Shown here: positions 1-613 of the stretch, piece by piece
How the letters are laid out: every line of letters begins with the position of its first letter
Numbering within the stretch: the stretch's first letter is position 1
Assembly: GCF_003334255.1 (NCBI RefSeq)
Contig: NZ_QOWU01000005.1
DNA from: Escherichia coli
Lineage (GTDB): Bacteria > Pseudomonadota > Gammaproteobacteria > Enterobacterales > Enterobacteriaceae
Reading direction: 5' to 3' (one strand)
DNA length: 64,000 nucleotides
Translations under genes and position numbers: made by a program
The notes under the pieces: generated by a model
Database searches by the model: none
Told to the model about the DNA's origin: nothing
The model's input: only the letters and a program-made list of their open reading frames with translations

Positions 1-97
1 AATCGGTGGAGCTGCATGACAAAGTCATCGGGCATTATCTGAACATAAAACACTATCAATAAGTTGGAGTCATTACCTAAATAGCTATAGAAATGCA

Positions 98-613
98 TTG
101 GCACAAAATGCAGGTGTCTATTCCTTTAATCTGACCTTGTCATACAACCCGATAACCACAACCTGCAAACCGGACGATTTATTAATTACTTTAGAGGGTA
201 TTCCCGTTTCACAATTACCAGCCACAGGTAACAAAGCAACAATAAATAGTAAAAAAGGGGATGTTATTCTGCGTTGTAAAAATTTATTAGGTCAACAAAA
301 TCAAACATCACGAAAAATGCAGGTGTATTTATCAAGTTCTGACTTGTTAACCAACAGCAACACAATACTGAAAGGTGCGGAAGATAATGGCGTAGGATTT
401 ATTCTTGAAAGTAATGGTTCGCCAGTCACACTTTTAAATATCACTAACAGCAGTAAAGGATACACAAATTTAAAAGAAATTGCGGCAAAGTCAAAACTTA
501 CAGATACAACGGTTTCAATTCCGATAACTGCCAGTTACTACGTCTACGATACAAACAAAGTTAAATCTGGCGCACTGGAGGCAACCGCATTAATCAACGT
601 GAAATACGACTAA
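98..613 (+). pseudogene. yehA: C-terminal fragment of a fimbrial adhesin (pilin-like domain), probably a truncated yehA
   Basis: 171-aa Ser/Thr/Asn-rich ORF typical of fimbrial subunits but with no signal peptide; only a TTG start, no ATG or Shine-Dalgarno; stop codons in all three + frames within bases 1-97; convergent with rcnB as yehA is in K-12. Symbol assigned by synteny only. Confidence 0.4.

Follow-up and report, generated by a model that had tools for sequence, protein, structure and literature searches.

Probable splitting of the pilus adhesin gene yehA by an IS1 insertion in an Escherichia coli lineage

We analysed a 64,000-nt stretch of an Escherichia coli draft genome (contig NZ_QOWU01000005.1 of assembly GCF_003334255.1; hereafter the window), which opens on a 171-aa open reading frame (ORF) with a fimbrial pilin-like domain. 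An earlier note, made from the letters alone, had read this ORF as the remnant of a fimbrial adhesin gene at the yehA position, whose 5' (lectin) part had been deleted or disrupted. Our analysis indicates that yehA was split by insertion of the mobile element IS1 with a 9-bp target-site duplication, and that it is an ordinary insertional pseudogene, a reading to which we give a probability of about 93%. Disruption is thus borne out and deletion is not: the first 149 mature residues of the lectin domain are still encoded, 768 bp upstream, in all complete genomes that carry the junction. The finding is already known in that RefSeq records both halves of yehA as pseudogenes around a transposase.

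The left edge of the window is the right-hand end of IS1. The earlier note had correctly recorded stop codons in all three forward frames within bases 1-97, and these are present because bases 1-77 belong to IS1 and are not degraded yehA; the cause of the truncation, which the note had missed, is visible inside the window. By translation, forward frame 1 has stops at codons 14, 16, 28 and 30 (window 1-99) and frame 3 at 60-62 and 78-80, and frame 2, which is the yehA frame, has a single stop at 17-19, is open from base 20 to 613 and is recognisable as yehA only from base 80 (...NSYRNALAQNAG...).

The whole element can be followed in the yeh locus of the complete genome of E. coli G1/2 (L001), where it is 768 bp long (L001 8310-9077), as expected of the IS1 family, and is labelled by RefSeq 'IS1-like element IS1A family transposase, programmed frameshift'. 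Its inverted-repeat arms (L001 8310-8332 and 9055-9077) are 23 nt long, 78% complementary and 722 nt apart, in agreement with the imperfect terminal inverted repeats of about 23 bp in the family reference (GGTGATGCTGCCAACTTACTGAT and GGTAATGACTCCAACTTATTGAT). A perfect 9-bp direct repeat, TAAATAGCT, abuts the element on both sides (L001 8301-8309 and 9078-9086) and is single-copy at the site in the intact alleles L003 and L012; the family duplicates 9 bp, occasionally 8 bp, of its target. Products of the same element in the G6/7 draft match the transposase domains Zn_ribbon_InsA, HTH_Tnp_IS1 and DDE_Tnp_IS1 (PF03811, PF12759 and PF03400). Moreover, of 5426 complete E. coli genomes, 5403 contain sequence matching window 1-160, the median being 10 places among the genomes with a match, and window 1-160 therefore behaves as a mobile repeat; queries holding the 77-nt IS1 end were found at 27-28 places each in G1/2, G6/7 and G8, the yeh locus included. 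All IS1-defining features that were tested, namely length, inverted repeats, transposase frames (insA and insB, read as InsAB' by programmed frameshift), target duplication and multicopy occurrence, are present.

The junction of IS1 with yehA recurs in finished genomes. A megablast search of window 1-1300 against the 5426 complete genomes matched G1/2, G6/7 and G8 at 100% in one colinear piece, and the annotation beneath the match reads IS1A family transposase, 'fimbrial protein', rcnB and rcnA. Only these three genomes have the exact junction in one colinear piece, and the yehA site is uninterrupted in 4607 (85%). The gene order in G1/2 is metG, apbC, yehE, yehD, yehC, yehB, a 'putative fimbrial-like adhesin, missing C-terminus', the IS1 transposase (programmed frameshift), a 'fimbrial protein, missing N-terminus', rcnB, rcnA and rcnR. 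Directly upstream of IS1 in G1/2, G6/7 and G8 lie the 5' 508 nt of yehA and intact yehDCB. The operon partners, which lie outside the window, carry the domains of a chaperone-usher system in G1/2 and the G6/7 draft: Fimbrial in yehD, PapD_N/PapD_C in yehC and PapC_N/Usher/PapC_C in yehB.

When IS1 and one copy of the repeat were removed in silico from the G1/2 sequence, an ORF of 1035 nt (344 aa) was restored. Compared with the annotated yehA of strain 720632, which is intact, it has differences at 7 nt and 3 aa, and it has no nucleotide difference from the intact yehA of a close relative (L012, GCA_042144035.1). This relative shares a rare thiM allele with the window and is a true empty site in the same lineage. 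On our reading, yehA, which closes the yehD-C-B-A chaperone-usher operon, was hit by a transposing IS1, and the 9-bp staggered cut usual for this element, made at yehA nt 500-508, left TAAATAGCT on both sides of the 768-bp element. The window opens 77 bp before the right end of IS1, leaving only the 3' 536 nt of yehA visible, and a simple insertion in the source strain would give a left junction reading ...GCATGTGTAAATAGCT/GGTGATGCTGCC.

The left junction was also traced through its product, a 170-aa protein ending in CVNSW and a stop, which occurs in 75 blocks of the assembly collection, including three Symbioflor drafts of 2015 (JPKH, JPMZ and JPKL) and gut metagenomes. Each locus that was read has the junction GTGTAAATAGCT/GGTGATGCTGCC. 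The product is a trace of the same insertion because only the left junction can create it. On a gut metagenome contig (L018 3509-4548; ENA ERZ27242393, k141_15387), the IS1 that stands on the right of the yehA 5' fragment is partial, matching IS1 nt 1-473 alone (98.5% identity), and a fragment of a Tn3-family transposase comes next. Either the IS1 context differs there or the metagenome assembly is chimeric.

The interrupted gene encodes the two-domain tip adhesin of the Yeh pilus, a chaperone-usher pilus of the gamma-4 clade. In a sequence search of PDB, precursor residues 21-193 of the reconstructed protein matched 9N4G, 9N4H and 9N4I ('YehD protein') at E ~1e-108; the match to 9N4G (E = 8e-109) has one substitution over mature residues 1-173. 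The mature chain begins at residue 21 in 9N4G, from which we deduced a leader of 20 residues. The structural study names the operon of strain UTI89 in transcription order, with yehA for the major subunit, yehB for the chaperone, yehC for the usher and yehD for the adhesin (PMC12778044, Tamadonfar et al. 2026). The K-12/RefSeq names used here run in reverse, YehA being the adhesin and YehD the major subunit. According to the same study, the receptor-binding domain of the intact UTI89 adhesin binds pectin and consists of a beta-rich core with an alpha-helical flap, the adhesin is incorporated at the tip of the pilus, and the Yeh pilus aids gut colonisation if type 1 pili are absent (PMC12778044).

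Within this protein, IS1 is located in codons 167-170, codon 170 (mature Tyr150) being interrupted, and the target duplication spans the codons of mature V147-Y150. The 5' fragment codes for the leader and mature residues 1-149, followed by a tryptophan and a stop from the IS1 end. We considered a break in the inter-domain linker, given that the Pfam Fimbrial match starts at 184 and the break falls at 169/170, and rejected it, as the receptor-binding domain of the crystal construct runs to 193. The break is thus inside the receptor-binding domain, because this domain extends to mature residue 173 in 9N4G, and it lies within the alpha-helical flap. Tyr150 itself is a flap residue that was mutated in the structural study (Y150A, 9N4I), and the adjacent R151 belongs to the flap motif (PMC12778044).

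The features at this edge of the window are collected in the table below. To the right of IS1, the fragment comprises the tail of the lectin domain (about 25 residues) and the complete pilin domain. The earlier note had described a truncation to the C-terminal domain: the pilin domain is indeed kept, and the boundary differs by the remaining lectin tail, mature 148-173. PF00419 matches the reconstructed YehA with an i-Evalue of 2.8e-22 over model positions 4-151 of 151 (hmmscan) and is its sole Pfam domain. The fragment is real coding sequence and not a chance ORF, because window 78-613 has no differences from nt 500-1035 of the intact 1035-nt yehA of L012. RefSeq describes window 62-613 as a pseudogene, 'fimbrial protein, incomplete, missing N-terminus', and the fragment is not a functional member of the adhesins.

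Features at the left edge of the window (positions of the window; L001, yeh locus of E. coli G1/2)
Feature	Position	Strand	Basis or remark
IS1 (IS1A type), right-hand 77 bp of 768 bp, transposase left to right	1..77	+	identical to L001 9001-9077
insB transposase, 3' end, stop TAA at 60-62	1..62	+	RefSeq CDS end at 62; frame 3 reads SVELHDKVIGHYLNIKHYQ and the stop
IS1 right terminal inverted repeat, 23 nt, ATCAATAAGTTGGAGTCATTACC	55..77		pairs with L001 8310-8332 (GGTGATGCTGCCAACTTACTGAT)
Target-site duplication, right copy, TAAATAGCT (yehA nt 500-508)	78..86		direct repeat flanking the element
yehA 3' fragment, nt 500-1035; whole codons (168-344) begin at base 80, stop codon 611-613	78..613	+	frame-2 translation
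Residual receptor-binding (lectin) domain tail, precursor 168-193 = mature 148-173	80..157	+	PDB alignment
171-aa mechanical ORF, TTG start	98..613	+	ORF listing; no independent gene
Pilin domain, Pfam Fimbrial PF00419, precursor residues 184-344	128..610	+	hmmscan
Intrinsic terminator between yehA and rcnB; GC-rich stem of 8 bp followed by a T run	670..697	+	terminator scan
rcnB, convergent neighbour	695..1033	-	RefSeq annotation of identical sequence

As to the ORF itself, the earlier description was accurate: it exists, has the pilin-like domain, converges on rcnB and is devoid of an ATG start, a ribosome-binding site and a signal peptide. It starts with TTG at precursor residue 175, and GGAG, AGGA and GAGG are absent from the 20 nt before this codon (TAAATAGCTATAGAAATGCA), i.e. 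there is no Shine-Dalgarno sequence. The window fragment is without a signal peptide because the natural leader, residues 1-20, is encoded by the upstream fragment. The note had named two findings that would speak against a truncation, a frameshift-free continuation upstream and a homologue that is naturally this short. We looked for the former and found IS1 sequence instead, and the intact homologue is 344 aa long. Further downstream, the terminator between yehA and rcnB is placed by the scan at 670-688, within the tabulated 670..697, and the centroid fold retains its hairpin.

With regard to function, the 5' fragment stops short of the lectin domain's end and has none of the pilin domain, and the 3' fragment is without a promoter, a ribosome-binding site, a start codon and a signal peptide of its own. 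In two-domain chaperone-usher adhesins, the pilin domain joins the lectin domain to the fibre, and either the chaperone or the next subunit supplies the donor strand that completes it; in type 1 pili the adhesin also activates the usher. The N-terminal fragment would probably be neither held by the YehC chaperone nor delivered to the YehB usher, because its pilin domain is missing. We infer that no functional Yeh adhesin is made, and the predicted phenotype is a strain without the Yeh adhesin and without Yeh-mediated, pectin-binding adhesion. No polar effect is expected, because yehA is the last gene before the intrinsic terminator. A fusion of InsB to YehA was considered and rejected because the frames differ, the insB stop lying in frame 3 and yehA in frame 2. 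By analogy with an IS1 upstream of afaA in ST131 (PMC8764528), we also considered a hybrid outward promoter where IS1 meets yehA. No sigma-70-like promoter above the scan threshold was found on the + strand of window 1-1200, a span that includes the junction; judged by eye, the strongest candidate is TTGGAG-N16-TATAGA, which has 7/12 and is below the threshold. This candidate mechanism was rejected, as nothing on the + strand passes the scan.

Several points weigh against a simple, inactivating insertion in the strain sequenced here. Nothing upstream of base 1 falls within the window, and the draft contig that matches it reaches only 4 nt beyond, so the 5' fragment of yehA in the source strain rests on the closest complete relatives (one single-nucleotide difference in 13.5 kb) and is not read directly. 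The loss of function is deduced from domain logic, and weak outward transcription from IS1 into the 3' fragment is possible, the promoter scan being consensus-based only. Moreover, a draft with 1 mismatch to the window in 13.5 kb (L010; GCA_027660425.1, JAQDNM010000020.1) reads kdpE-IS1-yehA3', and a real rearrangement in that isolate is possible. With the left side of IS1 out of view in the window, an IS1-mediated adjacent deletion or rearrangement might have taken the 5' part of yehA in the source strain and left the right junction unchanged. Such an event is seen at the yeh locus of strain 13C1065T (NZ_CP019259.1, L004 1588-3170), in which an IS1 of the same orientation abuts a yehA 3' fragment beside rcnB, the element having a 5' fragment of yehD to its left and a yehA that resumes at nt 443 to its right. 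These flanks do not match and include no target duplication, so yehD'-yehC-yehB-'yehA, most of the yeh operon, has been lost in an IS1-associated deletion. Unlike this allele, that of the window lineage is flanked by a perfect 9-bp duplication and has lost nothing, and a simple insertion with this duplication is found in all three complete genomes with the junction and in three older drafts. As for L010, its IS1 (6678-7386) is 709 bp long, with 59 internal nt collapsed, and G1/2, G6/7 and G8 each have a separate IS1 downstream of kdpE, at the exact kdpE junction, in direct orientation, about 1.8 Mb away. It is better read as an assembler join through the repeat, because a true recombinant would mean a lethal deletion; we rejected it as evidence of rearrangement and took it for a chimeric short-read join through IS1. 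A deletion or rearrangement in the source strain is very unlikely in our estimate.

The same draft could instead be held against the junction, as an example of a chimeric join through IS1 in a related assembly, and the window starts 4 nt short of a draft-contig end that falls inside a multicopy repeat. Should the junction be a repeat-padded contig end or a chimeric join, yehA would really be intact. We regard this as hardly plausible: three complete genomes, finished independently, and three older drafts carry the junction with its two flanks and the matching 9-bp duplication, and the junction is not a misassembly, because a target-site duplication is the signature of transposition. The contig of another strain (L014) begins exactly at window 80, i.e. 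breaks at the junction, and a metagenome scaffold (L009) has an N-gap exactly at the insertion site. It could also be supposed that a real, naturally short pilin-like gene begins at the TTG, for the ORF has 171 open codons and a full Pfam Fimbrial match, and some gene callers call it as a protein. On the other hand, it has neither the signal peptide needed by a periplasmic pilin nor a Shine-Dalgarno sequence, its region bears the RefSeq pseudogene mark, and its frame runs on upstream of the TTG to the IS1 boundary, matching yehA codons 168-176. The comparison with intact alleles, in which the site lies uninterrupted inside a 344-aa gene in 4607 of the 5426 genomes, refutes a short gene, and the chance of one is practically negligible. 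Insertion of IS1 into yehA thus remains our reading of the locus.

The insertion described here is one of many. IS1 within yehA was counted in about 90 of the 5426 complete genomes, at 23 or more distinct sites and in both orientations, roughly between nt 280 and 765 of the 1035-nt gene; among insertion sequences (IS) this survey covered IS1 alone, and within yehA the part beyond the 5' third. A junction query anchored at yehA nt 757 gave 74 genomes in which IS1 has the same orientation, and their insertions fall at 14 or more distinct positions, including nt ~443, 500, ~510, ~532, ~567, ~575, ~590, ~597 (EC958 clade), ~625, ~653 (O104:H4), ~655, ~665, ~670 and 757 (TG1/NEB Turbo), and the query for the opposite orientation gave 16 genomes and about 9 positions. 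The carriers include the EC958 clade of ST131, O104:H4 outbreak strains, the K-12 strains TG1 and NEB Turbo, the Symbioflor lineage and many poultry isolates. A single hotspot, that of TG1, was rejected for the genomes with a 2000-bp span, as the exact TG1 junction occurs only in TG1, NEB Turbo and nearly in B27, and the others have many different insertion sites. IS1 in yehA is recurrent and has already been published for ST131.

IS1 has long been known to prefer AT-rich targets, and the low GC content of yehA (38.6% vs 51.4% for the window) fits this preference. yehA may be a preferred or selected target of IS1. That loss of the pectin-binding Yeh adhesin has been repeatedly favoured in some gut or host niches, beyond the taste of IS1 for AT-rich sequence in a dispensable gene, seems doubtful to us. 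The adhesin gene has been reported in about 50% of ~88,000 genomes (PMC12778044). Draft assemblies broken at IS copies might lie partly behind this figure, compared with the intact site in 85% of the complete genomes.

The ST131 EC958 clade, O104:H4 and TG1/NEB Turbo share with the window lineage the element family, the target gene and the two RefSeq pseudogene fragments flanking IS1, and TG1/NEB Turbo likewise has a 768-bp IS1 with a 9-bp duplication (AGTTCTGAC, yehA nt 757-765). The window allele was hit at nt 500-508, in the receptor-binding domain, whereas the sites of EC958, O104:H4 and TG1 are in the pilin domain; because the sites differ, these are independent events. The Yeh operon of UTI89 is, like that of the window lineage, a minimal one of four genes (for major subunit, chaperone, usher and adhesin). 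Its adhesin is intact, whereas the gene of the window lineage is split at mature Tyr150 and no intact adhesin is possible. FimH and PapG also consist of an N-terminal receptor-binding domain and a C-terminal pilin domain, and share this two-domain layout with the Yeh adhesin. The alpha-helical flap of the Yeh receptor-binding domain is not seen in other two-domain adhesins (PMC12778044).

The surroundings of the locus tie the window to the same relatives. Window 1-10586 is identical to E. coli G1/2, and the first 10.5 kb are likewise identical to G6/7 and G8; the window has 42 mismatches to G1/2 in the first 37 kb, and identity is 97-98.5% beyond 39.6 kb, so that G1/2 itself is not its source. 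These three strains are among the six Symbioflor 2 probiotic strains, which come from one donor (PMC4358396). A draft contig located through the lineage-specific ThiM protein (CYUC01000008.1, 128,741 bp, GCA_001299315.1; L013) was compared with the window over 13,480 nt and has 0 mismatches; its end lies 4 nt past window base 1, i.e. 81 nt inside IS1. The window starts where it does because the matching draft contig breaks 81 nt inside the IS1 repeat, and in that assembly the upstream part is on another contig.

Farther into the window, colinearity with G1/2 is lost at about 36700-39650, in the mdtA-yegL interval around tandem repeats of ibs (type I toxin), and window 39645-64000 is about 100% identical to isolate F404. 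This suggests a recombination boundary near ~36700-39650 and a mosaic chromosome there. F404 is not the source either, as it has an intact yehA, and the gat operon in place of a ribitol/arabitol island. This ribitol/D-arabitol utilisation island occupies window 10538-21516, between fbaB and yegS, and comprises two RbtT/DalT transporters, a pentulose kinase, an SDR dehydrogenase, dalD, xylB and regulators; the operon of F404 is gatYZABCD-R, for galactitol. At least 80% of window 10001-34000 is covered in only 306 of the 5426 complete genomes. We take the island to be the classical rtl-atl/gat chromosomal alternative of E. coli C and K-12.

Finally, as a textbook IS1 insertion that is already annotated, the case carries little weight as a discovery. 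It shows that a 'truncated gene' at the edge of a window or contig can be a repeat-induced assembly break. The K-12 yehA is the 'yehD' of the structural paper, and presence/absence surveys of this adhesin could be distorted both by the reversed names and by contigs that break at inserted IS1 copies. As for the organism, the lineage, which includes three of the six Symbioflor 2 strains, would be unable to make the Yeh tip adhesin.
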